A DNA stretch of 58,287 bases, taken from positions 1 through 58,287 of the forward strand of contig CAZUKV010000002.1 in NCBI GenBank assembly GCA_964621075.1, given 5' to 3'. The position numbers were made by a program, and so were the translations under genes. This DNA is from an uncultured bacterium (GTDB lineage: Bacteria; Macinerneyibacteriota; Macinerneyibacteria; Macinerneyibacteriales; Macinerneyibacteriaceae). Numbering within the stretch: position 1 is the stretch's first letter; the number at the start of each line of letters is the position of its first letter. Positions 1,076 through 58,287 of the stretch are shown here, piece by piece. Below the pieces are notes generated by a model. The model saw only the letters and a program-made list of their open reading frames with translations. It made no database searches and was not told where the DNA came from.

Positions 1076-1076
1076 A

Positions 1077-2922: not shown

Positions 2923-2923
2923 G

Positions 2924-4780: not shown

Positions 4781-5123
4781 AAGCAATTCATTTTTGATAT
4801 TATGTCAACCCATTTTTCCCGGATTGTTTTAAAATCAACTTCCTTCCATTTTGTTTCTTTTGATGGGATTACAATAATTTTGTATTTTTTTTTAAATTCA
4901 TCTTTTGTGTTTCTGTATAACTCTCTTATAATACGCTTTATATAGTTCCTCTTTACTGCATTCCCATGTTTTTTTGTTACTATTATTCCTATTTTATTAT
5001 TATTGCTTCTAATGTAATATATTACAAATAAATTATTTTTTAATTTTTGTCCTTTATTAAAAATTTGTTTAAATATACTTTTTTTTTTATTCTATAATTT
5101 TTTTTGAATGAATTTGCTTTCAT
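4774..5123 (-). CDS. rnpA: Ribonuclease P protein component; reading frame broken by a 1-nt shift in an A10 tract (5079-5088)
   Basis: ATG at 5123 gives MKANSFKKNYRIKK; after the tract a second frame gives SIFKQIFNKG...IGIIVTKKHGNAVKRNYIKRIIRE (RNR motif) to TAA at 4774. Span is 350 nt, not a multiple of 3. Confidence 0.9.
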
Positions 5124-5145
5124 ATTTAATCCTATTTCTTTATGG

Positions 5146-5174
5146 AAATTAATATATAAATTCGCTGCAGTCAA
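5146..5174 (-). promoter_or_regulatory. Putative sigma70 promoter for rnpA-yidD-yidC operon
   Basis: Minus strand TTGACT (5174-5169), 17-nt spacer, TAATTT (5151-5146). Confidence 0.45.
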
Positions 5175-10774: not shown

Positions 10775-10794
10775 AAGAACCTCCTATAAAATCA

Positions 10795-10867
10795 AGCGGA
10801 TAACGGGACTCGAACCCGCGACTTTCAGCTTGGGAAGCTGAAGCTCTACCAGCTGAGCTACATCCGC
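10795..10867 (-). tRNA. tRNA-Gly (CCC), CCA not encoded
   Basis: Reverse complement GCGGATGTAGCTCAGCTGGTAGAGCTTCAGCTTCCCAAGCTGAAAGTCGCGGGTTCGAGTCCCGTTATCCGCT folds as a cloverleaf; anticodon loop TTCCCAA; TTCGA T-loop; U73. Confidence 0.96.
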
Positions 10868-10981
10868 TTTTAATAATCCTTTTAGAGAAAATTAGCATAA
10901 AGGAAAAAAAATTCAATCATTAATTTATTATACAAAAGAGTTGAATAAATAAAAGGATTATATTAGGGGTTTATAAATTTA

Positions 10982-16456: not shown

Positions 16457-18954
16457 TGTACGAAAAATTTAGTGAAAGAGCAAGAAAAATTATTATATAT
16501 GCCAGAGAAGAGGCACAAAAGTTGAACTACGATTTTATTGGAACCGAACATGTTCTTCTTGGATTGTTAAGAGAGGGTGCCAGTATAGGTGTAATTGTCT
16601 TAAGACGCTTGAAAGCTAACATAACAAATCTTAAAAGTAATGTTGAAGCATATCTTCTAAAAGAAAATGAACCAAATGCAAATCATGAAATTCAATTAAC
16701 TCCAAGAGCTAAAAGAGTTTTGGAATTAGCTGTTAATGAAGCAGAAAAGATGGGGCATAATTTTATTGGGACCGAACATATATTACTCGGGCTGATTTTA
16801 GAAGATAATGGTATTGCAGCAAAAGTTTTAAAAAAAGAAGGGTTAACTTCAGATAAAATAAGGTCAGAGATAGTTAATCTATTAAGTGGAGATGCTGATC
16901 AGGATGTTTTTAAAAAGAATAGAAACAAAAAAAGAGCTAAAAAATCTTCCGCTTCCTTAGAGGATTATAGTAGAGATTTAACTCGGATGGCTGATTTGGG
17001 CAAACTTGATCCGGTTATTGGAAGAGAAATTGAAATAGAACGTTTAATGCAGATATTGGGACGTAGGAAAAAAAACAACCCGGTTTTGATTGGCGAGGCT
17101 GGGGTAGGGAAAACAGCAATAGTTGAAGGATTAGCACAAAGAATTGTTGAGGAGGAAGTTCCCTCCAGTTTAACAGGAAAAAAAGTTATATCTTTAGATC
17201 TGCCCTCAATAATTGCAGGAACGAAATACCGGGGGCAGTTTGAACAGCGTTTAAAAGCCCTGTTAAAAGAGATTCAAAAATCAGAAAATATTATTGTATT
17301 TATAGATGAAATGCATACCCTGGTTGGAGCTGGAGCTGCAGAGGGTGCAATCGATGCATCCAATATTTTGAAACCTTCTCTTGCAAGGGGGGAGATTCAA
17401 TGTATTGGTGCAACTACTCTGGATGAATATAGAAAATATATAGAAAAAGATACTGCACTTGAGAGAAGATTCCAGAAAATTATAGTGGATCCGGCTACTG
17501 TTGAAGAAACAATTGATATCATATCCGGATTAAAAGATAGATATGAAGCTCATCATGGATTAGAGATAACCGATGAAGCTATTCTCTCATCAGCAAGATT
17601 GTCTGAAAGGTATCTTTCAGATAGATTCCTTCCGGATAAAGCTATTGATTTAATTGATGAGGCTGCATCTATGGTGAGATTGACATTATCAAAAAGGCCT
17701 AAAGAAATTACTGATCTTGATAAGAAAATTAAAGAGTTAAACAAAGATAAAACTAATGCTATAATGATGCAAAAATTTGAAAAAGCAGCATTTTTCAGAG
17801 AACGTGAAGAAAAATTAAAAACCCAGAAAAAATCTTTGGTTTCACAGTGGGAAGAAAATCAATCCAATCAGGAACAAAAAGTTGAACAGGAAGATATAGC
17901 AATTTTGATTTCAAAATGGACAGGAATTCCCGTAGCAAAAATTGAAGAAAAAGAAAGTGAAAGATTGCTGCGTATAGAAGAAGAATTAAGAAAACAGATA
18001 ATAGGACAGGATAAGGCTATTAAAGTTGTGGCGAATGCTCTTAGAAGAACAAGAGCAGGATTGAAAGATCCCTCAAGACCTATTGGAGCCTTCATGTTTT
18101 TAGGTCCTACAGGTGTTGGGAAGACTGAATTAGCAAGAGTTCTTGCTGAATTTATGTTTGATGATGAAAATACTTTAATAAGAGTTGACATGTCTGAGTA
18201 CATGGAAAAATTTGCTGTTTCAAGATTGACAGGAGCTCCACCTGGATATGTTGGATATGAAGAAGGAGGGCAGTTAACTGAAAAAGTTAGAAGGAAACCC
18301 TATTCTGTAGTTCTTCTTGATGAGATAGAAAAAGCTCACCCTGACGTATTTAATATATTGCTCCAGGTTTTTGAAGATGGACATTTAACTGATAGTCTTG
18401 GAAGAGTTATAGATTTTAAAAACACAATTATAATAATGACATCTAATATTGGAGCTAAATATATATGGAATCAAAAACGAGTTGGTTTTTCAGAGAATGC
18501 AGATGGTATAGATTATGATAAAATGAAAGAAATGGTTGTTTCTGAAACAAAGAAAAAATTTAACCCTGAATTTTTAAATAGACTCGATGAACTTGTTGTA
18601 TTTAATACTCTGGGAGAAGAAGAAATTAGAAAAATTATTGAAATTAATCTCGAAGAGGTAAAAGAAAGAGTTGAAGAAAAAAACATGTATTTAGAAGTTA
18701 CAGAGAATGTTAAAGATTATTTAATTGAAGTTGGATTTAATAAAGAATATGGTGCAAGACCCCTTAGAAGAAGTATTCAAAAAAATATTGAAGATGTTTT
18801 GGCGCTGGATATTTTAAAAAATAAGTTTGTAGAAGGCGATACAATAAAAGTAGATGTTGAAGATGGTAAAATTGTTACAGAAAGAGCTGAAGATTCAATA
18901 TTGAGGGGATTAAAAGAAGAAGAGGCGGAGGAAGTAGATGAAAAGGCTGAGTAG
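16453..18954 (+). CDS. clpC: ATP-dependent Clp protease ATPase subunit ClpC
   Basis: Double Clp-N repeats, two AAA modules ([16 protein letters not shown]), short UVR-type middle domain ([13 protein letters not shown]), GARPLRR. Confidence 0.93.
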
Positions 18955-21157
18955 TATTCTATTAATTGTTTTGTTGTTAACCGGATTAAGTTATAGCCAG
19001 GCAACAATAGATGAGATAAATGTTGATGGTTTAAATAATTTAGATAAAGATTTTTTTGTTTCAATATTAAATCAAAAAAAAGGAGATTCCTTTTCTCCTG
19101 TAAAATTGAGAGATGATATAAGAAATCTTTATGAGTTGGGATATTTCGAAAATATAGATGTAGATGTAAATGAAACATCTACCGGGATAGTTATCCATTT
19201 TGAGGTAAAAGAAAGGCCCTTTATTTATGAAATTAATATAAAAGGAAATAAGCAATTTTCCAAAAATGAAATTTTGGAGGAAGCTCCTTTCTTAACAGAA
19301 GATGTTCCTTTTGATAAAAAATATATTCATAAAGCAGAATACAGAATTAAAAAGAAATATCAGGAAAAAGGATATGCGTCTATAAAAGTGAAAACTTCTC
19401 ATACTCTTAAAGAGGATAAAGGAATTATCATTAATTTTAATATTGAAGAAGGTACCAAGATTTCTGTAGGAGATATTGTTTTTAAAGGAATTGATAAAGT
19501 AGATCCTGATGAGCTTAGAAAAGCAATGGAAACCAAAGAGTCACGATGGTGGAAACATCCAAAATTAGACAAGACACAATTAAAAGAAGATATGGAAAGA
19601 ATAAAAAAGAAATTAAATGAGCTCGGGTATTTTGGATATGAAATAAGAGGGCATGAAGTTAAGATAGATGATAAAAGGAAAAGAGCTGATATATATATAG
19701 ATTTGAAAGAAGGAAAAAGGTACATATTAGATGAAATTGAAGTAAAGGGAAATGAGATATTTGCTGATAAAGAAATACTGGAGAATATAACATTAGAAAA
19801 AGGTGAATATTTTGATGGAGAAGAGTGGTCAAAAACCCAGCAGAATATTATAAATATGTATGGGAATAAGAGTCATATTTTTGCAAATATTGATCCAATT
19901 TACAATTTTGATGGTGATAAGTTAAACTTAAAATTAATTATAAATGAAGGGAATCCAATTAAAATTGGTAATATAAATATAGAGGGTAACACTAAAACCT
20001 TTGATAAAGTAATCCTGAGAAATCTTCTTTTAAAACCAGGAGATAAATTTCAGAGAAATAAGCTGATGTTGAGTCAAAGGCAGTTATATAATACTGGATA
20101 TTTTAAAGATTTGAAAATTATTCCATCTCCACATAAGGGTAGAGAAGATAAAATGGATCTTACAATTAGTTTAAAAGAACAACGGACAGGGTCCATTAAT
20201 TTTGGAGGAACTTATAATGCTGTTACCGGTTTTGCCATTTATTTGAAATATGAAGAAAAAAATATTTTTGGCAGGGGAATTAAAGGAAATATTCAAATCG
20301 ATTATGGAAAAAATAAAAAAACTTACATGCTTGGATTAACAGATCCTTACTTTCGTGATACACCAACCTATGTTTCATTTAATGTTTACAGAAAATTAAA
20401 TATATATGATGAGTATGATATTTTTAGAAATGGTGGAGATATAACACTTGGAAGAAATTTATCACTCTTCACAAAGGGTTTTATCTCATACAAATATGAA
20501 CGTGTAGATCTTGAAAATGTTATAGAAGAAGCTCAGGAAGACATCGACGAAGCTTCAGAGATAAGGAGTAGTGCAACAATTTCTTTTGAGAGAGATTCGA
20601 GGGATAATAAATTTGAACCAACAACAGGAACTTTTAACTCTATTTCTGCTGAACTTGGAGGTACTATTCTTGGAGGAGATCTTAATTATCATAAATATGA
20701 AGCAGAAACTAATTGGTTTTTTAAATCATTTTGGAAATTAGTTTTTTCAAATAATTTGAAAGTTGGAGTAGTAGAAAAATTAGAACCTTCTTCAAAAGTT
20801 CCCCAGTATGAAAGGTTTTTTGTAGGGGGAAATGTATATGGAGTTAGGGGATATGAAGATAAAGAGTTATCTCCTGAAGATGAAAATGGCTATATAACAG
20901 GAGGGAATTTTTATGTTACAAATTCTGTAACTTACAAAGCACCGTTAGTCGAGAACAGAGTAACAGGATATTTATTTTGGGATGTTGGTAAAGCATGGGA
21001 AAATATTGGGGATTTTAATTTCCGGGATATGAGAGATGGTGCCGGTCTTGGTGTTAAAGTAACTACACCTATGGGTCCCCTTACATTGGAATATGCATAT
21101 GGTTTTGAAAATAAAAACTGGAAGTTTCATTTTGGAATTTTTCAGGGTGATTTTTAA
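18938..21157 (+). CDS. bamA: Outer membrane protein assembly factor BamA
   Basis: Signal peptide, five POTRA-like repeats, VRGYE lid motif, [14 protein letters not shown]-terminal Phe. Confidence 0.95.
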
Positions 21158-21178
21158 AAAAATTATTAGGAGGATTAT

Positions 21179-21673
21179 ATGAAGAAAATAATTTCATTAT
21201 TTTTAATTGTATTTTTAATTGGAACAGCAGTTGTTGCACAGAATATTGCAGTTGTTGATGTTGCAAAAGTTTATGATGCATCGAATGATGCCAGAAAAGC
21301 ACAATCTATTTTCCAGAAAGAAGCTGAAGGCATGCAAAAACAGATGAAGTCAAAATATGATGAGCTATTACAGCTTCAAAAGGAATTTAAAGAAAAAGCT
21401 CAATTTTTAAGTGAAAAAGAAGTTGAAAAGAAAAAACAGGAATTAATGAAAAAACAGCAGGAATTTAATCAATTAAGAAATAAACTTGCACAGCAATCTG
21501 AAAGTAGAAGACAGGAGTTAATGAAACCAATACTTGAAAAAATCAAGGCTATAGTTGCAAATATAGCAAAAGAGAAAAATTATGATGCTGTTATAAACAA
21601 GGAAGCCTTTATTTATTCAAAAGATAATATGGATATTACTTCCATGGTAATAGAAAGGCTAAACAAAAAATGA
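21179..21673 (+). CDS. skp: Skp/OmpH periplasmic chaperone
   Basis: Signal peptide, IAVVDV, long coiled coil, DITSMVIERLN; follows bamA. Confidence 0.92.
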   Translation: MKKIISLFLIVFLIGTAVVAQNIAVVDVAKVYDASNDARKAQSIFQKEAEGMQKQMKSKYDELLQLQKEFKEKAQFLSEKEVEKKKQELMKKQQEFNQLRNKLAQQSESRRQELMKPILEKIKAIVANIAKEKNYDAVINKEAFIYSKDNMDITSMVIERLNKK

Positions 21674-32642: not shown

Positions 32643-35633
32643 ATGAATAATTTTAGAAAGGTGTTGGTCGTTTTATTTTTAGTATTTTTCATATTTTCAT
32701 TCAATTATGGGAATGTTGAAAAGGTTAGTCTTGCTAAGGTTCAAAACATTAGATATGACAGGGAGTTGAAATCACCTTTAATAATGAGGGGTGAGCTGGC
32801 AAAAAGAGGAAAGCGGGGATTGTCTCCTGAAAAAAACTTTTTCAATAAGTATCAGAAGTTTTTTAGAGTTGAAAATTTGGCTGAAAATGTGAAAAAGGTT
32901 AAAGAAATAACCGGGTTCATGGGTAAGAAACATCTCAAGTTTGAACAGTTTTATAAAGGAATTCCTGTGAGAGGTGGAGAGTTCTTTCTTAAAAAAGAAA
33001 ATGATAAGATTACTGGATTTTCAGGTAAGATTTTACCTGAAATAAAGGTTAGTATTAATCCATCACTATCCAGTTCAAGAGCGGGAAATATTGCTCTAAG
33101 GTATATCCCGGATAAAAACAACAGGGAAGTTGCAAAATCTGAAAAAATGATTTTTAGAAAAGACAAAGGAGTTTACAGATTGTCCTATAAGTTGCATATA
33201 AGAGCTGAGAAATATTACTGGGTTGCTTATGTAGATGCAATTAATGGAGAGATATTATTAAAATATAATAATATTAAAAATGTAACAAAAACTTCTTATT
33301 ACAATGGTAATGTAGATATTAATATGAATGGTGATGAGTATTATGATAGTACAAGGAATACCTGGGTAGAAAATAGTAGTGGATCAGTTTATACAGAAGG
33401 ATATGATTCTACTCAAAATGAAAAATGTGTTCAGTTATTATGGTCTTCTTCAATGTCAATTGATTTCTATCAGCAAAAATTTAATCATGATTCATGGGAT
33501 GGTTATGGCGGATCTGTTCCCGTTGTTTATAATCCTGATGAAAGTGCTTATTATTATAACGGGAAAATTACAATTGGAGATATGCCGAGTACAAGTGATA
33601 TAGGTTTTGTGGGAGATCTGGATGCAGTTGCCCATGAATTTTCACATGGGTTCTGTTCAAATACTGCAAATCTTGAATATTATAATGAATCAGGAGCTTT
33701 AAATGAAGCCAATTCTGATATAATGGGTAACAGTGTTGAAAGATGGGCTACAGGAAATTATTCAGATTGGGCTGTTGGAGAAGAAGCAATGAGAAATGGA
33801 TATGAATTCTTAAGAAGTATGGAAGATCCAAGTGAGAGTTATAACAGTCAGCCTGAATATTATTCAGAAAGATATACCGGAACTTCTGATAATGGTGGAG
33901 TTCATGTTAATAGTTCTTTGGGTAATAAATTTTTTCAGTTGCTTGTTGATGGAGGTACCTGGTATAGTGAAAACAATGGAAATGTAACTGTGACAGGTAT
34001 TGGAGATAATGATGCACTGTCAATATGGTATAACTCAATGACTACAAAGTTTACTACAACTACAGATTATTACGAAGCAAGAGATTTAACGATTGCTTCT
34101 GCTGAGGATCTGTTTGGAACAGATTCTGAACAGGCGGTTCAGGTTCAAAATGCCTGGGCAGCTGTAGGAATAGGTACACCTGCTGGTTCCGGTGGGGGCG
34201 GCGGAGGATCTACCGAAGATCCTTATGAACCAAATGACTCAATGAGTGAAGCTTATGAAGTTTCTGCAGGTAATACATACAGTTCATATATTTATGAATC
34301 AGGAGATGAAGATTATTACAAAATTAGTGTAAGTGAAAGCGGGACTCTTGATTTAACTACAGGTAATCTTGCTGGGGATTATGACATGTATCTTTACAAT
34401 TCTTCAGGAACCGAACTTGATAAAGCCTATACAACTAATGATCCTGAAACTATTACTCACGAAATTTCATCAGGAACATATTATATAAGAGTAAATGGAT
34501 ATAACGGGGCTTATAGCAGTTCAACAAAGTATAACTTAACAGTTGAATTTACACCTGATGGATCTGGTGGTGGAGGAGGGTCTACTGATGATCCTTATGA
34601 ACCAAATGACTCAATGAGTGAAGCTTATGAAGTTTCTGCAGGTAATACATACAGTTCATATATTTATGAATCAGGCGATGAAGATTATTACAAAATTAGT
34701 GTAAGTGAAAGTGGAACTCTTGATTTAACTGCCGGAAATCTTGCTGGAGATTATGATATGTATTTATTCAACTCATCAGGAACCGAACTTGATAAGGCTT
34801 ATACTACTAATGATCCAGAAACCATTAATTATGATGTATCCTCAGGAACATATTATATAAGGGTAAATGGATATAACGGAGCCTACAGCAGTTCAACAAT
34901 GTATAACCTAACAGTTCAATTTACATCTGATGATACAGGTGGTGGTGGAAGTGGGGAACCTCAATGGTATATTACAACATTATCTTCACCAGTTGAAACA
35001 CCGCACCCTTATGAAAATAGTCAGACTTATTCATATGATTACAGTAAACCAGGTGCAACACAGGTAGCAATACATTTTTCAAGTTTTGAATTTGAAAATG
35101 GATATGATTATGTAAGAACCTATAATAGTAATGGTACAGAAATTAACTCATATACTGGTACCAAAAGTGAATTCTGGACTGTAGTTGAAGGAGATTATAT
35201 AAAAATAAAAGCATTCTGTGATTATATTTATAATGATTATGGATATGTTATAGATCAGGTTGCTTATTATAGTGATACAAATCTTGGATTTACAGATGGA
35301 GAAACTAAATCAGAATTGAATGCGGTGACAGGAAATATAACTCCTAAGGTTAGATTTGATAAATTAAAAAATTATCCAAATCCATTTAATCCCGAAACAA
35401 ATATTGTTTATCCTGTAAATAAAAGCGGTGTAGTAAAAGTTGTTATTTATAATTCAAGTGGTAAAAAAGTAAGGGTTCTTGTAAATGAACATAAAGAAGC
35501 AAGAGAAGAACCATACACAGTTCACTGGGATGGCAAGGATAAAAATGGAGACATCTCTGCAAGTGGAATTTATTACTGTATCGTAAAAGGAAAGGGATTT
35601 AAAAATACAAGAAAAATGATTTTACTAAAATAA
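32643..35633 (+). CDS. Secreted M4 (thermolysin-family) metalloprotease: propeptide, catalytic domain, 2x PPC, CUB-like, C-terminal FlgD-Ig/T9SS-like domain
   Basis: FEQFYKGIPV propeptide; HEFSH, GALNEANSD, DNGGVHVNS; two DPYEPND PPC repeats; C-terminal NYPNPFNPET...WDGKD...SGIYY...KMILLK. Confidence 0.93.
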   Translation: MNNFRKVLVVLFLVFFIFSFNYGNVEKVSLAKVQNIRYDRELKSPLIMRGELAKRGKRGLSPEKNFFNKYQKFFRVENLAENVKKVKEITGFMGKKHLKFEQFYKGIPVRGGEFFLKKENDKITGFSGKILPEIKVSINPSLSSSRAGNIALRYIPDKNNREVAKSEKMIFRKDKGVYRLSYKLHIRAEKYYWVAYVDAINGEILLKYNNIKNVTKTSYYNGNVDINMNGDEYYDSTRNTWVENSSGSVYTEGYDSTQNEKCVQLLWSSSMSIDFYQQKFNHDSWDGYGGSVPVVYNPDESAYYYNGKITIGDMPSTSDIGFVGDLDAVAHEFSHGFCSNTANLEYYNESGALNEANSDIMGNSVERWATGNYSDWAVGEEAMRNGYEFLRSMEDPSESYNSQPEYYSERYTGTSDNGGVHVNSSLGNKFFQLLVDGGTWYSENNGNVTVTGIGDNDALSIWYNSMTTKFTTTTDYYEARDLTIASAEDLFGTDSEQAVQVQNAWAAVGIGTPAGSGGGGGGSTEDPYEPNDSMSEAYEVSAGNTYSSYIYESGDEDYYKISVSESGTLDLTTGNLAGDYDMYLYNSSGTELDKAYTTNDPETITHEISSGTYYIRVNGYNGAYSSSTKYNLTVEFTPDGSGGGGGSTDDPYEPNDSMSEAYEVSAGNTYSSYIYESGDEDYYKISVSESGTLDLTAGNLAGDYDMYLFNSSGTELDKAYTTNDPETINYDVSSGTYYIRVNGYNGAYSSSTMYNLTVQFTSDDTGGGGSGEPQWYITTLSSPVETPHPYENSQTYSYDYSKPGATQVAIHFSSFEFENGYDYVRTYNSNGTEINSYTGTKSEFWTVVEGDYIKIKAFCDYIYNDYGYVIDQVAYYSDTNLGFTDGETKSELNAVTGNITPKVRFDKLKNYPNPFNPETNIVYPVNKSGVVKVVIYNSSGKKVRVLVNEHKEAREEPYTVHWDGKDKNGDISASGIYYCIVKGKGFKNTRKMILLK
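34218..34932 (+). repeat. Intragenic tandem duplication, period 372 nt (124 aa, PPC domain plus Gly linker)
   Basis: 34218-34303 is identical to 34590-34675 (86 nt); the rest of the units differs mostly at synonymous positions. Confidence 0.95.
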
Positions 35634-45970: not shown

Positions 45971-46424
45971 AATCGTTGCAAGGAACCGAAAAGCGAAACA
46001 TCTATATCATATAGAAAATACTTATGAAGCAGGAATAGTTCTTCTCGGCACGGAGGTAAAATCCGCTCGTGCCGGAAGGATTAGTATAAAAGAAAGTTAT
46101 GCACGGTTTTTTGATGGGGAACTCTACCTTGTTAATTCACATATTTCAGCATATAAAAATTCTTCAATATTTAATCATGATGAAAAAAGAATGAGGAAAC
46201 TTCTTTTAAAAAAAAGCGAATTACAGAAACTGCACGGGAAAGTAACTCAAAAAGGTTATACACTAATACCTTTAAAGGCTTATTTTACTGAAAAAAAATT
46301 ACTTAAAATTTCAATAGCACTAGCTAAAGGAAAAAATATTAGAGATAGGAGAGAGGAGATCAAAAAACGTGATATCAAAAGAGACATGAACAAGGCTTTG
46401 AAGGATAAAAAATATGAACGCTAA
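45963..46424 (+). CDS. smpB: SsrA-binding protein
   Basis: [32 protein letters not shown]. Confidence 0.97.
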
Positions 46425-47607
46425 AAAAAATTTTTTTTTTATTTTAATATTTTTAATTATTCTTTTTTCTTACCAAATTTATTCTTATAATATTTTAAAA
46501 ACTGTAAAGATTTATAATTCAAAATATTATCAGCTCAATCTATTATTTTCAAAAAATATTCAAAAATTTGATATATCTGCAAATGCGAAATATTTAGATA
46601 TTTATTTTGATAACAATGTTTATAATGATTTTAAATTTTATTTGCCGATTAGTGTAGGAAATAATCGAATTCGTATTAATTTAAGAAATACTATTTCAAG
46701 TTATAAAGTAAAAAAATATAAAAATGTAATTAATTTAATTTTATATAAAAGAGACTTGAAGAAAGAAAAAAAAGTTGCCGGAAAAAAGCAGAATAAAACT
46801 TCCCAAACAAATAATTTAAAAAAGAATAATAAAGAAAAGGGAAAAATAACAATAACTAAAAAGGAACAGGGGCAACCTATATCTACAGGGAAAAATAAGG
46901 TTAAAAAATGGAAAATTATAATTGATGCAGGACATGGGGGCAGAGATCCTGGTGCAGTTGGTCCAGGTGGGATACAGGAAAAAGGAATAGTTCTATCTAT
47001 AGCAAAAAAAGTGCACAAATTATTACAAAAATATAACAATTTTGATTTAATAATGACCAGGAAAACCGATTCTTTTGTTAAATTGCAAAATAGAGCGAAA
47101 ATTGCAAATAATGCAGGTGGAGACCTTTTTGTGAGCATACACGCAAATGCTATTAGTGGATACAAACGCAGACGGAGAACAAAGGGAATAGAAACATATT
47201 TCTTAGCAGAAGCGAGTTCCGATAGGGCAAGAGAAGTAGCTATAAGGGAGAACGCTTCTTTAAAATATGAAATGGAGAATTATAAGAATGAATCCATGAT
47301 AAAAAATATTTTATTTGATATGGCTGATTCTCAATATAAAAAAGAAAGTAGTGAAGTAGCGTATTCAATTCAAACAAATATGATAAATAGTATAAAATCG
47401 GTTGATAGAGGAGTTCAGCAGGCTCCATTTTATGTCTTGAGGATGGTTTCAATGCCTTCTGTACTGGTTGAAGTGGGATTTGTTTCTCATCCAACCGAGG
47501 TAAAATATTTATTGTCGGATTCTTATCAAGATAAAATTGCACGAACAATCGTAAAGGGAATTATAGAGTATTTTAATAAACGGGGAAAAATTTATGCAAG
47601 GAAGTAA
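46414..47607 (+). CDS. N-acetylmuramoyl-L-alanine amidase (Amidase_3)
   Basis: N-terminal signal/TM; IDAGHGGRDPGA, SIHAN, VEVGFVSH. Confidence 0.93.
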   Translation: MNAKKNFFFILIFLIILFSYQIYSYNILKTVKIYNSKYYQLNLLFSKNIQKFDISANAKYLDIYFDNNVYNDFKFYLPISVGNNRIRINLRNTISSYKVKKYKNVINLILYKRDLKKEKKVAGKKQNKTSQTNNLKKNNKEKGKITITKKEQGQPISTGKNKVKKWKIIIDAGHGGRDPGAVGPGGIQEKGIVLSIAKKVHKLLQKYNNFDLIMTRKTDSFVKLQNRAKIANNAGGDLFVSIHANAISGYKRRRRTKGIETYFLAEASSDRAREVAIRENASLKYEMENYKNESMIKNILFDMADSQYKKESSEVAYSIQTNMINSIKSVDRGVQQAPFYVLRMVSMPSVLVEVGFVSHPTEVKYLLSDSYQDKIARTIVKGIIEYFNKRGKIYARK

Positions 47608-48676
47608 TATTGTAGTTGAAGAGATTCATGATCAAAATTTATATGAAAATTACTCACAAAAAATATCCGCTCATTTTCTTCAAAGCTGGAAGTGGGGGGA
47701 GTTTAAAAAAGAATATGGGTGGATTCCTGTAAGGGTTTTTTTTAAACATGAAAATAAAATAATTGGTCTTGCGCAGGTTTTAATAAAAATAATCAGGGAT
47801 AAAAAGCTGTTTGCATATATACCGAGAGGTCCGGAGATAACGATTCATAATATAAATTTCTTAAAACAGATTTTTAATAATCTGAAAATTTTTATAAGAG
47901 AAACTTATTCTCAGATTGCATTTATCCGATTTGAAATGAATAACATGGAAAAAATAGAGGGAATGCAGGTCTCCCAAAATGAAAAAGTTATAGAATTTAT
48001 AAAGAAGAACTATAAGAAAAGTCCCTATAATATACAGGTAAAGGATACCAGAAAACTGAAATTAATTGATAGTAAAAAATTATGGGATAATTTCAAGTCG
48101 AATCAAAGAAGAAAAATTAGAAAAGCAAAAAAGTATGATGTAAAAATTTATAAAACAAAATCTGAAAAAAAATTTAAGAAATGGTTTAATATTAATAAAA
48201 AAACAGCAAGTAGAGCAAATTATTTTATTCATCCCTATAGTTATTATAAAAAATATTTTAACAGTTTTATAAAAAATGATCTTGCAAATCTTTATGTAGC
48301 AGAATTTGAAAATAAAATTGTGGGTGGAATCATAGTAGTTTTATATAATAATGAAGCAATTTATCAATACGGAGCTTCTTTGAGACTCAAAAAAAATGTA
48401 TATTCAAATGAAGCACTTCAATGGAAAGCAATAAAAGATGCTGAAAAAAAGGGTCTAAAATTTTATGATTTTTGGGGAGTATCTCCGGATGAAACAGATA
48501 AAAGTCATCCATGGCACGGTATATCAAAATTTAAAAGACAGTTTGGGGGCAAACATGTCACATACATTGGAGCTTATGATATCCCTCTTCATGGAATAAA
48601 ATATTATATTTTAATAATCCTTGAAAAATTGAGAAAAAAATATTTAAAAATAAAAAAATATTTTAGGAAAAAATAA
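47594..48676 (+). CDS. FemAB/FemX/MurM-family aminoacyl-tRNA-dependent peptidoglycan bridge ligase
   Basis: HFLQSWKWGEFK, YIPRGP, RRKIRKAKKYDV, YQYGAS, YDFWG, FKRQFGG...YIG. Confidence 0.88.
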   Translation: MQGSNIVVEEIHDQNLYENYSQKISAHFLQSWKWGEFKKEYGWIPVRVFFKHENKIIGLAQVLIKIIRDKKLFAYIPRGPEITIHNINFLKQIFNNLKIFIRETYSQIAFIRFEMNNMEKIEGMQVSQNEKVIEFIKKNYKKSPYNIQVKDTRKLKLIDSKKLWDNFKSNQRRKIRKAKKYDVKIYKTKSEKKFKKWFNINKKTASRANYFIHPYSYYKKYFNSFIKNDLANLYVAEFENKIVGGIIVVLYNNEAIYQYGASLRLKKNVYSNEALQWKAIKDAEKKGLKFYDFWGVSPDETDKSHPWHGISKFKRQFGGKHVTYIGAYDIPLHGIKYYILIILEKLRKKYLKIKKYFRKK

Positions 48677-52897: not shown

Positions 52898-52904
52898 AAA
52901 ATAA

Positions 52905-52930
52905 ATAAAAGAGGGGAAACCCTCTTTTAT
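52905..52930. terminator. Bidirectional intrinsic terminator
   Basis: ATAAAAGAGGG-GAAA-CCCTCTTTTAT perfect 11-bp stem between convergent genes. Confidence 0.88.
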
Positions 52931-53397
52931 TTATATAAAAAAACACCACCATTATTGTTTCCATTGTTTATTGTTGTTTTAAATATCTCGCTCATTATTG
53001 GTTCTAAATCTTTCCTTGTAAGATATTTTGCAGTGATTTCAACATGATTATTTTCATAAATACGAATTTTAACAAAATTATAAAAAAAATTTTTATTTTT
53101 ATAATTAATTAGGTTGTTTTTAGATGCTGCAATATAAGCTTTTTTATTTCCAATTGAATTTTTGGCAAAATATTCAAAAACATCCAGTGTCATTCCCCCT
53201 ATAGCTTCAGGTGAATTTTTTATTTTTTTCCCCTTAGAAAAAAGATTACACTTACCATAATGGATTCTTACTTTAATTTCAGTACCAGATTTAATAGCGG
53301 TTATTAATTCTGAAAAGTTATTTATCTTCTTTGATTGACATCCAGTTGATAGTAATGATAGGAAAATTAAAAGAAATATTAAGAATTTGTTTTTCAT
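52927..53397 (-). CDS. Lipoprotein, VirK-like
   Basis: Start MKNKFLIF (ATG 53397) with lipobox STGC; FSELITAIKSG...VRIHYGKC...IGGMTLDVF...VKIRIYENNHVEIT resembles the VirK family as recalled. Confidence 0.6.
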   Translation of the reverse strand: MKNKFLIFLLIFLSLLSTGCQSKKINNFSELITAIKSGTEIKVRIHYGKCNLFSKGKKIKNSPEAIGGMTLDVFEYFAKNSIGNKKAYIAASKNNLINYKNKNFFYNFVKIRIYENNHVEITAKYLTRKDLEPIMSEIFKTTINNGNNNGGVFLYK

Positions 53398-53534
53398 GGG
53401 TACTCCTTTTATATTATATAAAAAAAATAACAGAGATTTTAAGATAATCAACTAATTAATTATATTTATATAATATAAATTATTGTAATATATACAAGAT
53501 TGTGTATAATATATACGTTTGGTACGGAGTAAAG

Positions 53535-54482
53535 ATGAATAATAAATATGTAAATTATATTAATATTTTTATTATCTTCCTTTTTTTTATTGTAAGCTGT
53601 AAAGGAGAAAATAATATGAAAAAAAATGAAAATATTTTAAAAGATTTAAATAAAGAAGAAAAAGATGTAATTATAGATAAAGGGACAGAAGCACCTTTTA
53701 CCGGCAAATTTAATAAGTATAAGGATAAGGGAACCTATATCTGCAAAAGATGTAGACTTCCTCTATATAAATCTGAAAACAAATTTGATTCAGGGTGTGG
53801 CTGGCCGAGTTTTGATGATGAAATTGATGTTGCTGTTACAAGAAAACCGGATAAAGATGGAATTAGAACAGAAATATTATGTTCTTATTGCGGGGCACAT
53901 CTGGGACATGTATTTGAAGGAGAAGGATATACGAAAAAAAATGTCAGACATTGTGTAAATTCAATTTCCATGGACTTTATACCTTTAGAAAAAAAATTAA
54001 AGAGAAATAGAGCTATTTTTGCTGCGGGGTGTTTTTGGGGAGTTGAATATTTATTTAAAAAAGCTGAGGGTGTTTTAGATACAAGAGTTGGGTATTCAGG
54101 AGGGGGTTATGATAATCCTACCTATGAGGATGTATGTAGTGGAGAAACGGGGCATGCAGAGGCAGTAGAAGTTATTTATAATCCTAATATAATAAGTTAT
54201 GAAGATTTGGTTAAGTTGTTTTTTGAAATACATGATTTTACACAGGTTAACCGGCAGGGGCCGGATATTGGAACTCAATATAGATCTGAAATTTTTTATA
54301 TCACTGAAAAAGAAAGAAAAATAATCAAAACTTATATTAAAATTTTAGAGAAGAAAGGATATGAAGTTGCAACTCAAGTATCAAAGGCTGATCGATTTTG
54401 GGTTGCTGAAAAATATCACCAGGATTATTATGACAAAACCGGGAAAAATCCTTATTGTCATGTTAAAAAAGATATTTTTTAG
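53535..54482 (+). CDS. msrAB: Peptide methionine sulfoxide reductase fusion, MsrB followed by MsrA, with lipoprotein signal
   Basis: MsrB: GTEAPF, CKRC, GCGWPSF, CSYC, RHCVNS; MsrA: AGCFWG, GHAE, QGPDIGTQYRS, AEKYHQDY, PYCH; N-terminal IVSC lipobox. Confidence 0.93.
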   Translation: MNNKYVNYINIFIIFLFFIVSCKGENNMKKNENILKDLNKEEKDVIIDKGTEAPFTGKFNKYKDKGTYICKRCRLPLYKSENKFDSGCGWPSFDDEIDVAVTRKPDKDGIRTEILCSYCGAHLGHVFEGEGYTKKNVRHCVNSISMDFIPLEKKLKRNRAIFAAGCFWGVEYLFKKAEGVLDTRVGYSGGGYDNPTYEDVCSGETGHAEAVEVIYNPNIISYEDLVKLFFEIHDFTQVNRQGPDIGTQYRSEIFYITEKERKIIKTYIKILEKKGYEVATQVSKADRFWVAEKYHQDYYDKTGKNPYCHVKKDIF

Positions 54483-54484
54483 TC

Positions 54485-55708
54485 ATGGAAAGGAAGTTTA
54501 TGTTAAACAAAATGATTTTGAAATCTTTTGGATTGGTTTTTTTTATATTTTTATTTTTAAATTGTATTTTTGGTTTAGAGAATTTATCACGGGTAGAATT
54601 TGATTATTATTATAACTCTGATCAATCAAATTTTTATGATGGATATTTTAAAAATGATTTTTTATATAAAGATAATTATTTAGAAATAAAAAATAGAACA
54701 TTTTTGGGTTCAACAGAAGAAAATTTTTATTTTTTGGATTCTGCATATGGAGAGTTTTATATAAAGAATCTTATGGTTGGTGCTAAGGGTACTTATAATT
54801 CAAGTGATGATGTTGGAAGTCTGGACAAATATTCTTTTCCCTTACTGAAAAAGGATAAAAATATTTTTATATTAGATAGTCTTTCCTATAGAGATTTTTT
54901 TACAGTAAAAGATAATGCTTATGAGTTGTATGAGTATATCCCAATTAATTCAATCTATGGAAGTTTTGAATTTTATAATTTTAAACTCTCCGGGGAAACT
55001 TTTAATGCTACTCCTGAAAATTTAGATGAAGATGAAAACCTAAAAGAGTTAGAATTTTTTGAAGATTTTAATCTTTCTTTAGTATATGAATATGGGGAGG
55101 TTAAAAATGGCTTGTTCTATTGTAGTGGTTCTCTTGGAGATTATTATTACAAAAAAGTAGAAGAAGATTTGAATGGTAACGGCAATTATTTTGATGATAA
55201 ATATAAAGATATTTTAATATATGCTCTCGGCATAGAGGATTTTCACTTAAATTTTGGTTTATATAATTATGAACAGTTCCATTTCATCACATCGAGATAT
55301 AAATTTAAAAGGGATGAAGATGAATACTATATCTATCTTGATTCTAATTTTTTGAATGATACTCTTTCTTTCTATTTTACATATAATTATGATATTCAAA
55401 CTTATTTACATTATAGTTACAAGCAGGAAGAAAAAGATTATTTTCTGGCAATGGCTAAATTGTTCAGGATCGATCCTTTAAAATTCAATCTTATGGCAGG
55501 GTTCAGAGATATTTATGATAACAATAAAAATTATAGAGGTGGATATTACAATTTAAAAATAACCTACCCACATAAAATAGCAGATTTCTATTTGTCAATT
55601 GGTAATACCATGTTTAATAATCTCTGGAATAGCTGGTATATTTATCCGGAAAATGATAATTTTGTTCTACATTTTGGTTTCAGCAAAAACTTTAAATTTA
55701 ATATATGA
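54485..55708 (+). CDS. Hypothetical exported protein, candidate outer-membrane beta-barrel
   Basis: Signal peptide then Tyr/Phe/Asp-rich alternating-pattern segments; C-terminus FVLHFGFSKNFKFNI; no TM helices in the mature part. Confidence 0.55.
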   Translation: MERKFMLNKMILKSFGLVFFIFLFLNCIFGLENLSRVEFDYYYNSDQSNFYDGYFKNDFLYKDNYLEIKNRTFLGSTEENFYFLDSAYGEFYIKNLMVGAKGTYNSSDDVGSLDKYSFPLLKKDKNIFILDSLSYRDFFTVKDNAYELYEYIPINSIYGSFEFYNFKLSGETFNATPENLDEDENLKELEFFEDFNLSLVYEYGEVKNGLFYCSGSLGDYYYKKVEEDLNGNGNYFDDKYKDILIYALGIEDFHLNFGLYNYEQFHFITSRYKFKRDEDEYYIYLDSNFLNDTLSFYFTYNYDIQTYLHYSYKQEEKDYFLAMAKLFRIDPLKFNLMAGFRDIYDNNKNYRGGYYNLKITYPHKIADFYLSIGNTMFNNLWNSWYIYPENDNFVLHFGFSKNFKFNI

Positions 55709-56598
55709 AAAAAAAAAGAAATGTATTTCTTTTAATTTTGGTAATTGTTTGGATGAGATATTTGTTTCCGATAGACTATTCAAATATTAGTAAACAGTGG
55801 TATAAGAAAGAGATGGTCAAGTTAATTTTAGAACTATCTGAGATTGCAAAAAATGAAAATAGTTCTTTTGAAATTCATGTTCAAAACGGGGTTTTCCTTT
55901 TAGATAGTGAAAAAAAAATAGAAGATAATTATTTCAATCTCGTATCTTCTTTTACACATGAGGTTGAAAATTTGAACTTCTTTTCACATACAGGCATAAA
56001 AAATAAAATGGAAATGGTGAAAAAGAATAATATTGATATTAATTTAATTGGATACGGCAGAAAAAGGGAGTTTGTGAATAAATTAATTAAATTTGCAAAA
56101 AGTCATGAATATGGCATGTATATTTCAAATAATTTTAAGTTAAACCAATTTCCAGATAAAAAAATTGAAACCCGAATAAAATTTAATGATATTAAATCAT
56201 TTTTATATCTAATAAATCCTGAAAAATATTCAAAAGTAGATAATTTGATAGAGGATATTATAAAATCGGGATACAAACTGGTTTTTATAGACCCTTTTTT
56301 TAAAAGCAAGATAATCAGGAGAAATTATATAAAGAAAATGAAACAAAATGATATAAAAATAATTGCTTACATGAGCATAGGAGAAGCTGAGAATTACAGA
56401 TATTATTGGAAAAATGAATGGAATAGTAATTCTCCTCACTGGATTATTAAGCATAATGAAAACTGGCCCGGTGGATTTTTTGTTAAATACTGGAATCCTA
56501 TCTGGAAAAAAATTTTGGGAGAATATCTCCATAAAATAATTTCTGCAGGTTTTGATGGAGTTATTTTTGATGTAGTTGATAGTTATGAATATTTTTAA
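55705..56598 (+). CDS. GH114-like (endo-alpha-1,4-polygalactosaminidase, TM1410-type) glycoside hydrolase
   Basis: LVFIDP, AYMSIGEAENYRYYW, ENWPG, VKYW, GFDGVIFDVVDSY. Confidence 0.88.
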   Translation: MKKKRNVFLLILVIVWMRYLFPIDYSNISKQWYKKEMVKLILELSEIAKNENSSFEIHVQNGVFLLDSEKKIEDNYFNLVSSFTHEVENLNFFSHTGIKNKMEMVKKNNIDINLIGYGRKREFVNKLIKFAKSHEYGMYISNNFKLNQFPDKKIETRIKFNDIKSFLYLINPEKYSKVDNLIEDIIKSGYKLVFIDPFFKSKIIRRNYIKKMKQNDIKIIAYMSIGEAENYRYYWKNEWNSNSPHWIIKHNENWPGGFFVKYWNPIWKKILGEYLHKIISAGFDGVIFDVVDSYEYF

Positions 56599-56610
56599 TG
56601 GGAGATATCG

Positions 56611-57837
56611 TTGTTTAAAATAGGTAAAAAAACTTATTATGGTTTTTTTGAAACACTTGTTGGTGTTTTTGTAATATTTTATTTTTTTTATTTATCTACT
56701 CCAATGAAGATGAGTTTTTTAAATTTAAATATCCATCCTTTTTTGATAATCGTAGCGATCATTTCTATTAGATATGGAAATATAATGGGACTTTTTTCTT
56801 CTTTTCTTTCTTCAATTTTTTATCTTTATGCTTATCTTGATTCAGGGAAAGATTTATATTTATTTTTTACAGATTTAAATAATTATAAATTTCCCTTAAT
56901 GTTTATCGCTACATCAATTGTTTTAGGCAAATTCAAAGAAAATAAAGATAAAGAAATTAACGCTTTAAAAAAGAAAAATAAATTTCTCGAAAATAAATAT
57001 CAAAAGTTAAAAGAAATTAATGAAAAAAATAGTTTCATAAAAGAAGAGTTAAAAAAGAGGATTATTAGTTCCGATACAAGTCTTTATTCATTATATGAAA
57101 TAGTCAATAAACTTGATAGACTTGAAATTGAACAGATATATACAGAGCTCATGGGAATTTTAATTAAATTTATAAAAGCCAAAACAGTTTCGTTTTTTGT
57201 TTTTGATAAAGGGAAAAATATTTTAAGGTTAAAAGCAAGATATGGTGGCAAATCAAAACTTGAAAGATCGAGTAATGTTCATGGATATCAATGTTTAAAA
57301 GAAGCTGTTTTGAATGAGAAATTTGATAAAAATAAAAAATACTGCAGGATAGGATATCCACTTCTTGTATCGCCGATAAAATATAATAAAGAAATTATTG
57401 GAGTTATTGCAGTTGAAGAAGTCGAATTTGAAATGCTCAGTGAATTTACTAAAAATTTGTTTAACTTAATTATAAAATGTGCCGATAAATTTTTATATTT
57501 TGCTATAAAAGAAGATAAAAGTTTGTCAAATAAATATTATAAAAATACTAAAATATTAAAATATAAATATTTTAAAAAAAGATTAAAAGAAGAAAATAGA
57601 AGGCTGGAAGAATATGGCATGGAATTTGTTCTTTTTAAATATAGAGTAGAAAATTTTAATATAAAGGAAATAAATCTAATTCTTAAAAATATTGTTAGGA
57701 ATGTTGATGTAATTTCATTCAATAGAGAAAAGAGTATTCTTAATATTCTTATGCCCGCCACTCCATCTGAGTTTGCAGAAAACATTGAAAAAAGAATATT
57801 AAACAAATTTGATTACAGGATAGATAAAATAAAATGA
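56611..57837 (+). CDS. PelD-like c-di-GMP receptor (TM helices, coiled coil, GAF, degenerate GGDEF)
   Basis: HPFLIIVAIISIRYG TM motif, coiled coil, GAF (SPIKYNKEIIGVIAVEE), RNVD I-site, no GG(D/E)EF; TTG start after GGGAG. Confidence 0.78.
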   Translation: MFKIGKKTYYGFFETLVGVFVIFYFFYLSTPMKMSFLNLNIHPFLIIVAIISIRYGNIMGLFSSFLSSIFYLYAYLDSGKDLYLFFTDLNNYKFPLMFIATSIVLGKFKENKDKEINALKKKNKFLENKYQKLKEINEKNSFIKEELKKRIISSDTSLYSLYEIVNKLDRLEIEQIYTELMGILIKFIKAKTVSFFVFDKGKNILRLKARYGGKSKLERSSNVHGYQCLKEAVLNEKFDKNKKYCRIGYPLLVSPIKYNKEIIGVIAVEEVEFEMLSEFTKNLFNLIIKCADKFLYFAIKEDKSLSNKYYKNTKILKYKYFKKRLKEENRRLEEYGMEFVLFKYRVENFNIKEINLILKNIVRNVDVISFNREKSILNILMPATPSEFAENIEKRILNKFDYRIDKIK

Positions 57838-58287
57838 GTTTTGTAAGAAAAATAATTCTTTTTATAGGTATTTTATTTGTAATAGGGGTTTTTGTACAGA
57901 TATTTAGAGTCCTAAATTTTTCAGAATTTTTTCAGGTAAAACAGGAATACATTAAAGAGGATTATTCCCCTGTTTCATCAAAAAAAATAACAAAAAAATA
58001 TAGTAAAATATTGGTTATTAATTCATTATCTGATTCCGAGAATTCTGTTTTCAACAATTTGAAAAAAACATTTGACTATTCTAAGATAAATTATGATGTT
58101 ATCAATATTGAGGAAATTAATGAATTGAGAAATGAAATTAATAAAAAGAAGCCCTCAATGGTATTAATTGTTACGGAGAAAGTTGATAACTTTGATGAAA
58201 TAGGAATATTTAATAAATATCTAACAAAAGGTGGGAAAATAGCCTTTTTAATAAGAAATTCAAATAATATTTTTAATAAGATGGCAG
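57834..58287 (+). CDS. DUF2194-like (PelA deacetylase-type) membrane-anchored protein, truncated by window edge
   Basis: Not in ORF track. ATGA overlap with the previous stop; open frame to window end: MSFVRKIILFIGILFVIGVFVQI...NLKKTFDYSKINY...MVLIVTE...YLTKGGKIAFLIR. Confidence 0.6.
   Translation, partial: MSFVRKIILFIGILFVIGVFVQIFRVLNFSEFFQVKQEYIKEDYSPVSSKKITKKYSKILVINSLSDSENSVFNNLKKTFDYSKINYDVINIEEINELRNEINKKKPSMVLIVTEKVDNFDEIGIFNKYLTKGGKIAFLIRNSNNIFNKMA

Follow-up and report, generated by a model that had tools for sequence, protein, structure and literature searches.

A pel operon of Gram-positive type with a predicted outer-membrane beta-barrel in a lipopolysaccharide diderm

Layout of the operon and its downstream half

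The DNA analyzed here is a stretch of 58,287 nucleotides (nt) from an uncultured bacterium (assembly GCA_964621075.1, contig CAZUKV010000002.1), which we refer to as the window. From position 54485 to the end of the window (54485-58287) it carries four co-directional open reading frames (ORFs), which form the first half of a pel operon with seven genes. That the operon is indeed a Pel exopolysaccharide operon is in our view almost certain. Its first gene encodes a predicted outer-membrane (OM) beta-barrel, which is our candidate for the Pel exporter. The four genes are:

ORF1, 54485-55708 (likely start 54500), plus strand: 402-407 aa; secreted, acidic and aromatic-rich; predicted OM beta-barrel and candidate Pel exporter
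ORF2, 55705-56598, plus strand: 297 aa; secreted, circularly permuted endo-alpha-1,4-galactosaminidase of the GH191/GH114 type, analogue of PelA_H
ORF3, 56611-57837, plus strand: 408 aa; PelD-type receptor for cyclic diguanylate (c-di-GMP), as judged by sequence
ORF4, 57834-58287, plus strand, cut by the window end: first 151 codons; transmembrane (TM) anchor and start of a DUF2194 PelA_DA

In agreement with a preliminary description of this DNA, the genes are tightly coupled, with a 4-nt ATGA overlap between ORF1 and ORF2, a 12-nt gap between ORF2 and ORF3 and a 4-nt overlap between ORF3 and ORF4. As the local GC content is only 26-29% and stop codons are frequent, ORFs of such length are not expected by chance, and conserved relatives exist for all four. 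Public gene calls for ORF1 use the ATG at 54500, which is preceded by a Shine-Dalgarno-like AAGGAAG run. A promoter and terminator scan detected no terminator-like site inside the four-ORF block; its sole terminator is a bidirectional one at 52901-52934. Promoter-like matches inside the operon were no more common than in shuffled sequence. An Rfam scan of the window returned one tRNA and nothing else.

Upstream of ORF1, a gene for an MsrB-MsrA fusion protein with a lipoprotein-like signal (…FFIVSCK) spans 53502-54482 and stops 2 nt 5' of ORF1. In Ca. Mcinerneyibacterium, msrAB likewise precedes the barrel gene, at a distance of about 500 nt. The gene is probably a mere neighbor of the pel operon, co-transcription being possible.

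Five public contigs encode a protein identical to ORF2, and the longest of them (16.3 kb; L001 in the following) belongs to the NCBI metagenome-assembled genome GCA_035312085.1. Since a single base differs in the last 1288 nt of the window (99.9% identity), L001 was taken as its continuation; the ORF3 protein differs from its L001 counterpart by one amino acid. On the 3' side of ORF3, L001 encodes a 608-aa DUF2194 protein, a 315-aa membrane protein, PelF and PelG, with junctions of -8, +2 and -1 nt, and convergent lemA and TPM genes follow behind pelG. The full operon of 9.2 kb therefore reads barrel, permuted GH191 hydrolase, PelD, PelA_DA (DUF2194), PelE, PelF, PelG. PelF scored 396.6 bits with the PelF equivalog model NF038011 (cut-off 100) and matched DUF3492 and Glycos_transf_1 (GT4) in addition. 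PelG matched PF16933 over the full profile (positions 1-452, 447 bits) and is of the 12-TM MATE-like type with an extra C-terminal TM helix. The preliminary description had proposed to look beyond the window end for pelF, pelG and pelE, and in L001 all three are present there.

The hydrolase, the PelD-type protein and the deacetylase

ORF2 matched the Pfam GH114 model (PF03537) with 58.6 bits (cut-off 27), residues 190-295 corresponding to profile positions 17-119 of 231. TIGR01370 was matched in two stretches with a total of 138.6 bits, which is below the equivalog cut-off of 181. The best PDB matches were structures of Thermotoga maritima TM1410 (phmmer, E=1e-24), and in these alignments residues 185-297 of ORF2 pair with residues 23-138 of the Thermotoga protein and residues 28-90, weakly, with residues 144-201. 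The two halves are thus swapped relative to TM1410, which indicates a circular permutation of ORF2. After placing the C-terminal half before the mature N-terminal half, we obtained one continuous TIGR01370 match (55-242, 158.5 bits) and a Pfam match of 64.7 bits (17-161) instead of 58.6 bits for the unpermuted protein. The hydrolase of Hypnocyclicus thermotrophus (L006:13101-13949) has the canonical order. Compared with this enzyme, the proteins of the window, L012, L009 and L010 each gave two high-scoring segment pairs in swapped order, with E-values of 1e-25 to 1e-39 in one of the two pairs and about 1e-6 in the second. The permuted hydrolases are encoded at 55705-56598 in the window, L009:11155-12093, L010:1294-2223 and L012:1102-2034, and their new termini lie after beta-4. 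A literature search turned up no description of a circular permutation in GH114 or TM1410 enzymes.

In 2025, CAZy family GH191 was established for the TM1410 family, whose members are endo-alpha-1,4-galactosaminidases; Env-GH191 prefers bacterial Pel, and Asp156 and Glu225 serve as catalytic residues in TmGH191 (PMC12054363). Their counterparts in ORF2 are:

Glu88, 55966-55968, plus strand: equivalent to the general acid/base Glu225 of TmGH191; 'HEVENL' pairs with 'AVENL'
Asp289, 56569-56571, plus strand: equivalent to the nucleophile Asp156 of TmGH191; 'IFDVVDSYEYF' pairs with 'IYLDRIDSFEYW'

Because of the permutation, the acid/base Glu88 is N-terminal to the nucleophile Asp289. By these alignments ORF2 is nearer to TM1410/GH191 than to GH114 proper and retains both catalytic residues. 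It shares the nucleophile Asp, the acid/base Glu and the beta-3 insertion (YWK..W..P.W) with TM1410/Env-GH191, GH114 Ega3 and GH166 PelA_H, but departs from the canonical N-to-C order of the (beta/alpha)8 fold in GH114 and GH191. The stand-alone GH114 hydrolase proposed earlier is accordingly a separate enzyme matched by the GH114 hidden Markov model (HMM), although it is closer to TM1410/GH191 and circularly permuted.

ORF3 begins with several hydrophobic helices (we count four in the sequence), continues with a coiled coil and a GAF domain and ends in a short GGDEF-like domain of about 95 residues, which is degenerate. GAF was matched in five of six PelD-family members (best E=1e-6), the match of ORF3 itself being weak. 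Searched against the PDB, the family profile gave matches below threshold to GAF domains and, best for the C-terminal domain, to the degenerate GGDEF domain of 6KHU (E=0.013). ORF3 is homologous (E=2.7e-5), and alignable from end to end, to an N-terminally extended protein of 698 aa that occupies the PelD position at the head of a Firmicute-type operon on contig L014 (pelD-pelE-DUF2194-pelF-pelG-cotH). The arrangement corresponds to the architecture that Whitfield et al. described for clostridia and actinobacteria. The residues predicted to contact c-di-GMP are:

R363-N-V-D366, 57697-57708, plus strand: RxxD inhibitory-site motif, invariant in 6/6 aligned proteins
R395, 57793-57795, plus strand: third predicted contact residue, invariant in 6/6 aligned proteins

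In PelD of Bacillus cereus, mutation of R363, D366 and R395, which correspond to R367, D370 and R402 in Pseudomonas aeruginosa, abolishes c-di-GMP binding (PMC7112168), and the ORF3 residues carry the identical numbers. Based on the domain architecture, the transitive homology and the RxxD...R residues, we accept ORF3 as a putative PelD by function and position.

ORF4 (151 aa) aligned in register with positions 1-120 of the DUF2194 profile (E=9e-5), and the full-length 608-aa PelA_DA of L001 matched DUF2194 with 356 bits (E=4e-106), together with a DUF2334/CE4-like stretch, which bears out the DUF2194-type protein proposed for this position. With its N-terminal TM segment (1-32), the deacetylase is monofunctional and not a fused PelA. 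All Gram-positive PelA orthologues start with a TM helix (PMC7890745), and PelA_DA of B. cereus is a de-N-acetylase that was modelled in complex with PelG (PMC13254593). The following 315-aa protein of L001 has N-terminal hydrophobic segments and matched no library model. As no library model exists for PelE, it was assigned via its homology to the PelE-position protein of L014 (BLASTP, E=7e-11); the PelE-position proteins of five lineages matched the latter with E-values of 6e-9 to 2e-17. A membrane-anchored DUF2194 protein, a separate hydrolase, a short PelD and PelE, the last two homologous to their L014 counterparts, make up the monoderm-style core that had been suggested for this locus.

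The ORF1 family and its association with pel operons

ORF1 belongs to a small family. Scanned singly, ORF1 and seven relatives gave zero Pfam matches, and ORF1 matched nothing in NCBIfam. The family profile had no meaningful match in the PDB (copy dated 2026, in which we assume the 2025 PelBC structure to be included); its sole match, below threshold, was the EF-hand region of MICU2 (E=0.026). A HMMER search over 1.84 billion representative proteins returned six matches to ORF1, one of which (P0006) was discarded as a spurious repeat protein. Scans of genomes and metagenomes for further relatives added variants and nothing else. Word-indexed homologue searches with ORF1 and PelD gave 2-3 matches each, with low-complexity AT-rich words saturating the candidates.

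Two segments delimit the mature protein and its best-conserved part:

Signal peptide, 54500-54574, plus strand: MLNKMILKSFGLVFFIFLFLNCIFG; predicted, within a Kyte-Doolittle hydrophobic segment at residues 1-30
NLWNSWYIYPE motif, 55619-55651, plus strand: most conserved block, in a loop or short helix before the last predicted strand

Conservation within the family starts at L26-E27 behind a variable N-terminus (alignments A4 and A5), and the homology to the Hypnocyclicus protein begins at residue 27. A lipoprotein assignment was considered on account of an LNC sequence in the window protein and rejected, the relatives having no Cys there. The best-kept motifs are KYSxPxLK, YRD, DYYYKxV-DLNGNG-DDKYKD and NLWNSWxIYPE, all of them in predicted loops and not in strands; W376, W379 and I381 are invariant in all eight sequences (A5). 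The acidic DLNGNG…DDKYKD segment (55166-55210) falls into a loop of low confidence and resembles a Ca2+-binding loop. ORF1 has an isoelectric point of 4.65, a net charge of -22 and 24% aromatic residues. At the C-terminus of the family, hydrophobic residues occupy alternating positions and the last residue is F, W, L or I; five of the eight aligned sequences end in an aromatic residue (F or W).

AlphaFold2, supplied with a 6-row alignment, modelled ORF1 as an all-beta protein with about 20 strands in meander order, short turns between them and two short helices in loops (mean pLDDT 75.5, pTM 0.70); an earlier run from a 2-sequence alignment had reached a pLDDT of 36.5. In a Foldseek search of the PDB, this model had 147 matches with E<=1e-3; all 50 that were listed are OM barrels, namely 16-stranded general porins, 18-stranded OccD/OccK channels and usher pores. 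The best TM-score was 0.48, to the 18-stranded OccK10, and the OccD/OccK channels ranged from 0.43 to 0.48. ORF1 is thus predicted to combine a signal segment, a beta meander and C-terminal hydrophobic alternation, in a host that encodes BamA. According to the model, the OM-barrel fold class is well supported and a specific structural relative is not apparent. We consider ORF1 very probably an OM beta-barrel, as the preliminary description had put forward. Its statement that the protein is unlike PelB with its tetratricopeptide repeats (TPR) also holds: ORF1 has no TPR and no sequence similarity to PelB, nor to entries of the PDB or Pfam.

All family members whose genomic context could be read lie within pel operons. 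The carriers represent six lineages, identical in gene order in four of them, span at least two phyla and range in GC content from 22 to 41%:

Window/L001, strain variant L011 (91% identical), L009 (Ca. Mcinerneyibacterium aminivorans) and L010: barrel-GH-PelD-DUF2194-PelE-PelF-PelG
L008 = L012: barrel-GH-PelD-DUF2194-PelE-PelF-PelG, as far as the contigs extend
L013: barrel-PelD-DUF2194-PelE-PelF-PelG; hydrolase gene absent
L006 (Hypnocyclicus thermotrophus, Fusobacteriota): PelD-DUF2194-PelE-PelF-PelG::barrel-GH

Could ORF1 be an unrelated general porin that lies upstream of pel by chance? The structural likeness is a generic one, to 16- and 18-stranded diffusion porins, and with msrAB ending 2 nt before ORF1 another transcript is conceivable. 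Against this stand the rarity of the family (six matches, one spurious, in 1.84e9 proteins), the placement of all locatable members in pel operons of at least two phyla, the 4-nt overlap of ORF1 with the next pel gene and the fusion to PelG in one lineage. Furthermore, msrAB is not adjacent to the barrel gene in L010, L013 and L006. A chance neighborhood is therefore highly improbable.

The association leads us to favor ORF1 as the Pel exporter, which we hold to be probable, although with less assurance than its fold. A link to pel does not by itself define a role, and an OM barrel might serve Pel biology in another way, by anchoring or retaining the polymer, by docking the hydrolase or by taking up oligosaccharides, with export being unlinked. 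In five of the six lineages the hydrolase gene comes directly after the barrel gene, including the one in which both stand at the 3' end of the operon, and the most conserved motifs of ORF1 are found in predicted loops, both of which would suit such a role. We nevertheless regard it as unlikely: no barrel-carrying operon contains an alternative export candidate, L013 retains the barrel without the hydrolase, and the fusion partner of the barrel is the inner-membrane transporter PelG and not the hydrolase. In addition, the diderm synthase-dependent systems known so far all encode a porin in the operon (PMC7112194, PMC7890745).

The fusion protein of H. thermotrophus (WP_134112702.1, L006:10001-13099, 1032 aa) is composed of PelG, an extra TM helix, a linker and the barrel. 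L006 was assigned to this organism by way of the RefSeq assembly cited in PMC8310279 and the name of the protein. The barrel domain forms the C-terminal third and has no signal peptide of its own; the N/K-rich linker between the extra TM helix and the barrel domain measures about 165-175 residues. A gene-calling artefact was considered and rejected, the fusion being one uninterrupted ORF in two assemblies, which may derive from the same reads. Both assemblies also share disruptions elsewhere in the locus: the DUF2194 gene has an in-frame TGA (6619-6621), and the reading frame of pelF is shifted around 8900-8950 and interrupted by an in-frame TAA at 9274-9276.

The unfused PelG proteins carry a related feature. 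They are extended at the C-terminus by a 13th TM helix, which follows an amphipathic stretch and precedes a charged tail of 30-60 residues:

L001:13500-13718: PelG extension
L009:~18950-19172: PelG extension
L010:~9150-9431: PelG extension

This extension is present in all four barrel-carrying operons with a readable PelG C-terminus and absent from the Firmicute-type PelG of L014. In Hypnocyclicus the tail has grown to about 170 residues and leads into the barrel domain. With 12 canonical TM helices and one extra, the tail would be periplasmic, and the topology of the fusion is consistent with a periplasmic or an outer-membrane site for the barrel domain.

This topology bears on a further explanation, in which the AlphaFold2 barrel is wrong and ORF1 is a soluble or PelG-tethered, beta-rich periplasmic domain that replaces the PelB TPR or PelC as a scaffold or binds the polysaccharide. 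A covalent tie to an inner-membrane protein is odd for a substrate of the beta-barrel assembly machinery (BAM), the alignment is shallow, the first AlphaFold2 run stayed at a pLDDT of 36, and the acidic DxNGNG...DDKYKD motifs together with the weak EF-hand match (E=0.026) could be read as a calcium site. The second model, however, has long antiparallel hairpins with 2-residue turns at a pTM of 0.70, and the significant Foldseek matches, OM barrels in all 50 cases listed, agree with it. So do the aromatic content of 24% and the alternating hydrophobic C-terminus ending in F, W, L or I, and a linker of 165-175 residues is long enough to cross the periplasm. We consider the periplasmic alternative quite improbable and retain the reading of ORF1 as an OM barrel.

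Proposed mode of action, known systems and implications

The host is an LPS (lipopolysaccharide) diderm with a BAM machine, as the preliminary description had assumed. This follows from the genes for BamA, Skp, LpxA/B/C/D, KdtA and LpxL, which the window encodes in one cluster outside the pel operon:

BamA-Skp-LpxD-LpxC-FabZ-LpxA-LpxB-oxidoreductase-KdtA-LpxL, 18938-29010, plus strand: Pfam matches; genomic context

BamA has five POTRA domains and an Omp85 domain, and LpxL is a lipid A acyltransferase. The only named genome with the operon in identical order is that of Ca. Mcinerneyibacterium aminivorans. The flanks outside pel are syntenic between this genome and window/L001 at 58-79% amino-acid identity, with a hypothetical gene, an aldo-keto reductase and MsrAB upstream and LemA, TPM and a nucleotidyltransferase downstream. 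Due to this synteny, we conclude that the window organism is a relative of Ca. Mcinerneyibacterium and that the operon occupies an inherited chromosomal position.

The window holds some further features apart from pel. The minus strand carries mnmE, jag (KH-R3H) and yidC at 1077-4540, and both the sign of the GC skew and the gene orientation flip at about 10.8-11 kb, beside the tRNA at 10795-10867. Positions 1-12000 look like an origin-proximal region of the chromosome; dnaA was not seen there. A secreted M4 (thermolysin-like) protease of 996 aa with a propeptide and two PPC domains is encoded at 32643-35633, and its C-terminus carries a near-threshold sorting domain of the type IX secretion system (Por_Secre_tail, 26.4 bits, cut-off 27). 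A gene of the FemAB family (peptidoglycan interpeptide-bridge type, 47594-48676) stands beside an Amidase_3 gene (46414-47607) in this LPS diderm.

From the gene content, the homologies, the conserved residues, the predicted barrel fold, the strict co-occurrence of barrel and pel, and the LPS and BAM genes, we infer a polymer chemistry, a control by c-di-GMP, an export role of the barrel and a link between barrel and PelG as follows. PelF, a GT4 enzyme in complex with PelD, PelE and PelG, would polymerize a GalNAc-rich alpha-1,4 chain at the inner membrane, with synthesis being turned on by c-di-GMP at the RxxD site of PelD. PelG would hand the chain to the periplasm, where the membrane-anchored DUF2194 enzyme would partly de-N-acetylate it, rendering it cationic, and the secreted GH191 enzyme would trim it. 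The chain would finally leave through the stand-alone, acidic beta-barrel of the new family, which would replace the TPR-porin PelB and the PelC ring, and the 13th TM helix and periplasmic tail of PelG may touch this barrel. None of the seven operon genes is a candidate for PelC, all being otherwise assigned, and the operon contains no other TPR gene. For the whole reading, the 5' half of a Pel operon in which a barrel replaces PelB and PelC, we estimate a probability of about 0.7.

In a more far-reaching version, the 13th TM helix and tail of PelG would dock on the barrel to form a two-part conduit without a TPR scaffold or PelC. The Hypnocyclicus protein would then be a single chain across both membranes, and the permuted GH191 enzyme would have co-evolved in the same periplasmic assembly. 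We offer this version only tentatively and think it rather unlikely.

Several findings weigh against the reading as a whole. The barrel model was built from a 6-row alignment, and its TM-scores to known barrels are just 0.31-0.48. The acidity of ORF1 is not a family trait, the barrel of L012 being neutral and the Hypnocyclicus domain basic, and it could merely mirror the proteome of a halophile. The Hypnocyclicus locus, with its disruptions, may be decaying and the PelG::barrel fusion may be non-functional. An unlinked homologue of PelB or PelC may exist elsewhere in the genome. The Pfam model PelD_GGDEF (PF16963) matched none of six proteins (ORF3 and five relatives), and the structures of P. 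aeruginosa PelD were not reached in the PDB, even by the PelD family profile. The c-di-GMP receptor proposed earlier therefore stands by its layout of TM helices, GAF and degenerate GGDEF domain and by R363, D366 and R395, but not by HMM support, the failure of which the preliminary description had named among the outcomes that would speak against it. Finally, the UDP-GlcNAc 4-epimerase that the preliminary description had proposed to look for downstream was not found, and neither were GGDEF/EAL genes, among the window ORFs of at least 150 aa and in the downstream part of L001.

The last points also touch the identity of the product. The operon could be real and still direct the synthesis of a related polymer with another sugar or modification, the PelD-like protein being no c-di-GMP sensor. 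Besides the missing linked C4-epimerase and the failing PelD_GGDEF model, the shortness of the GGDEF-like domain (about 95 residues) and the permuted, diverged hydrolase would fit this explanation, and divergent pel loci may make different polymers, as cautioned in PMC7112194. Conversely, PelF scores above the PelF equivalog cut-off, the RxxD...R triad of ORF3 is intact, de-N-acetylase activity of the DUF2194 protein PelA_DA is proven for B. cereus, and GH191/GH114 enzymes are specific for alpha-1,4-GalN/GalNAc, one of them preferring Pel (PMC12054363). A product other than Pel is thus improbable in our view, and we maintain Pel as the predicted polymer.

Among known systems, the closest likeness is to B. 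cereus ATCC 10987 with pelDEA_DAFG and a separate pelA_H (PMC7112168). In both, a short PelD-type protein of about 405 aa combines TM helices with GAF and degenerate GGDEF domains and carries R363/D366/R395; both also have a TM-anchored DUF2194 protein lacking a hydrolase domain, a separate secreted hydrolase, PelE, PelF and PelG. The gene order is D-A_DA-E-F-G in window/L001 and D-E-A_DA-F-G in B. cereus. In contrast to B. cereus, the host described here is an LPS diderm and the operon has a leading barrel gene, a co-transcribed hydrolase of permuted GH191 type and a PelG extension, and no linked galE. Gram-positive-type Pel systems belong to monoderms without an OM component, whereas this operon of a diderm opens with a predicted OM barrel.

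With pelABCDEFG of P. aeruginosa (PMC12141448) the operon has the PelD/E/F/G core and, as predicted, the c-di-GMP logic in common, and export through an acidic barrel, known there, is proposed here. The PelB lumen, which passes cationic Pel, is acidic, as is ORF1, and the conserved ORF1 loop just before the last strand corresponds in position to the Plug-S gate of PelB. Unlike in P. aeruginosa, there is no TPR, no PelC in the operon and no fused PelA, and the modelled barrel has about 18-20 strands versus 16 in PelB. The alginate exporter AlgE is, like ORF1, a separate polypeptide without TPR (AlgK stands apart), and barrels of the Occ/OprD type gave the best TM-scores (0.43-0.48). AlgE is electropositive. 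ORF1 differs from it in its opposite, acidic charge, in the lack of any sequence relationship and in that no AlgK-like TPR lipoprotein is encoded in the operon.

Fusobacterium nucleatum has a related cluster (CS401_RS04325-RS04365 / C4N14_05285-05320) with an endo-alpha-1,4-polygalactosaminidase, DUF2194, hypothetical proteins, pelF and pelG. The genes are co-regulated, and this pel-like operon, which responds to Porphyromonas gingivalis signals and putrescine, is mentioned unanalyzed in transcriptome papers (PMC9848294, PMC12826042). No F. nucleatum protein was among the ORF1-family matches in the 1.84 billion representative proteins, and its OM component, if any, is therefore different or more diverged. 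The combination of Gram-positive-type parts with a predicted OM protein in an LPS diderm, as suggested in the preliminary description, is thus confirmed, but diderms outside this lineage have DUF2194-type pel loci as well. The systematic surveys describe Gram-negative operons, including rearrangement and fission of PelB, and poreless Gram-positive operons; a diderm DUF2194-type locus with a barrel of its own is found in neither of the two (PMC7112194, PMC7112168). What appears to be new is the barrel family and its restriction to pel operons, the C-terminal extension of PelG, the fusion of PelG with the barrel, and the permuted GH191 enzyme.

To our knowledge, the well-studied synthase-dependent systems of diderms (cellulose, poly-N-acetylglucosamine, alginate and Pel) all export their polymer via a porin coupled to a TPR scaffold. 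If a bare barrel without TPR is the sole candidate for spanning the envelope, this scaffold would be dispensable or replaced, perhaps by the extended PelG. H. thermotrophus offers a cultured carrier of the barrel, though with a disrupted locus. The permuted GH191 enzyme is a TIM-barrel glycosidase with a natural circular permutation and conserved catalytic residues, and it may be of use for studies of fold evolution and as a scaffold for antibiofilm enzymes. As Mcinerneyibacteriota-like organisms and Fusobacteriota carry it, the "Gram-positive" Pel architecture is not bound to monoderm envelopes. Diderm DUF2194 pel loci bear on the movement of pel across the monoderm/diderm divide, and they point to an unexamined Pel system in F. 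nucleatum, an organism of medical interest.

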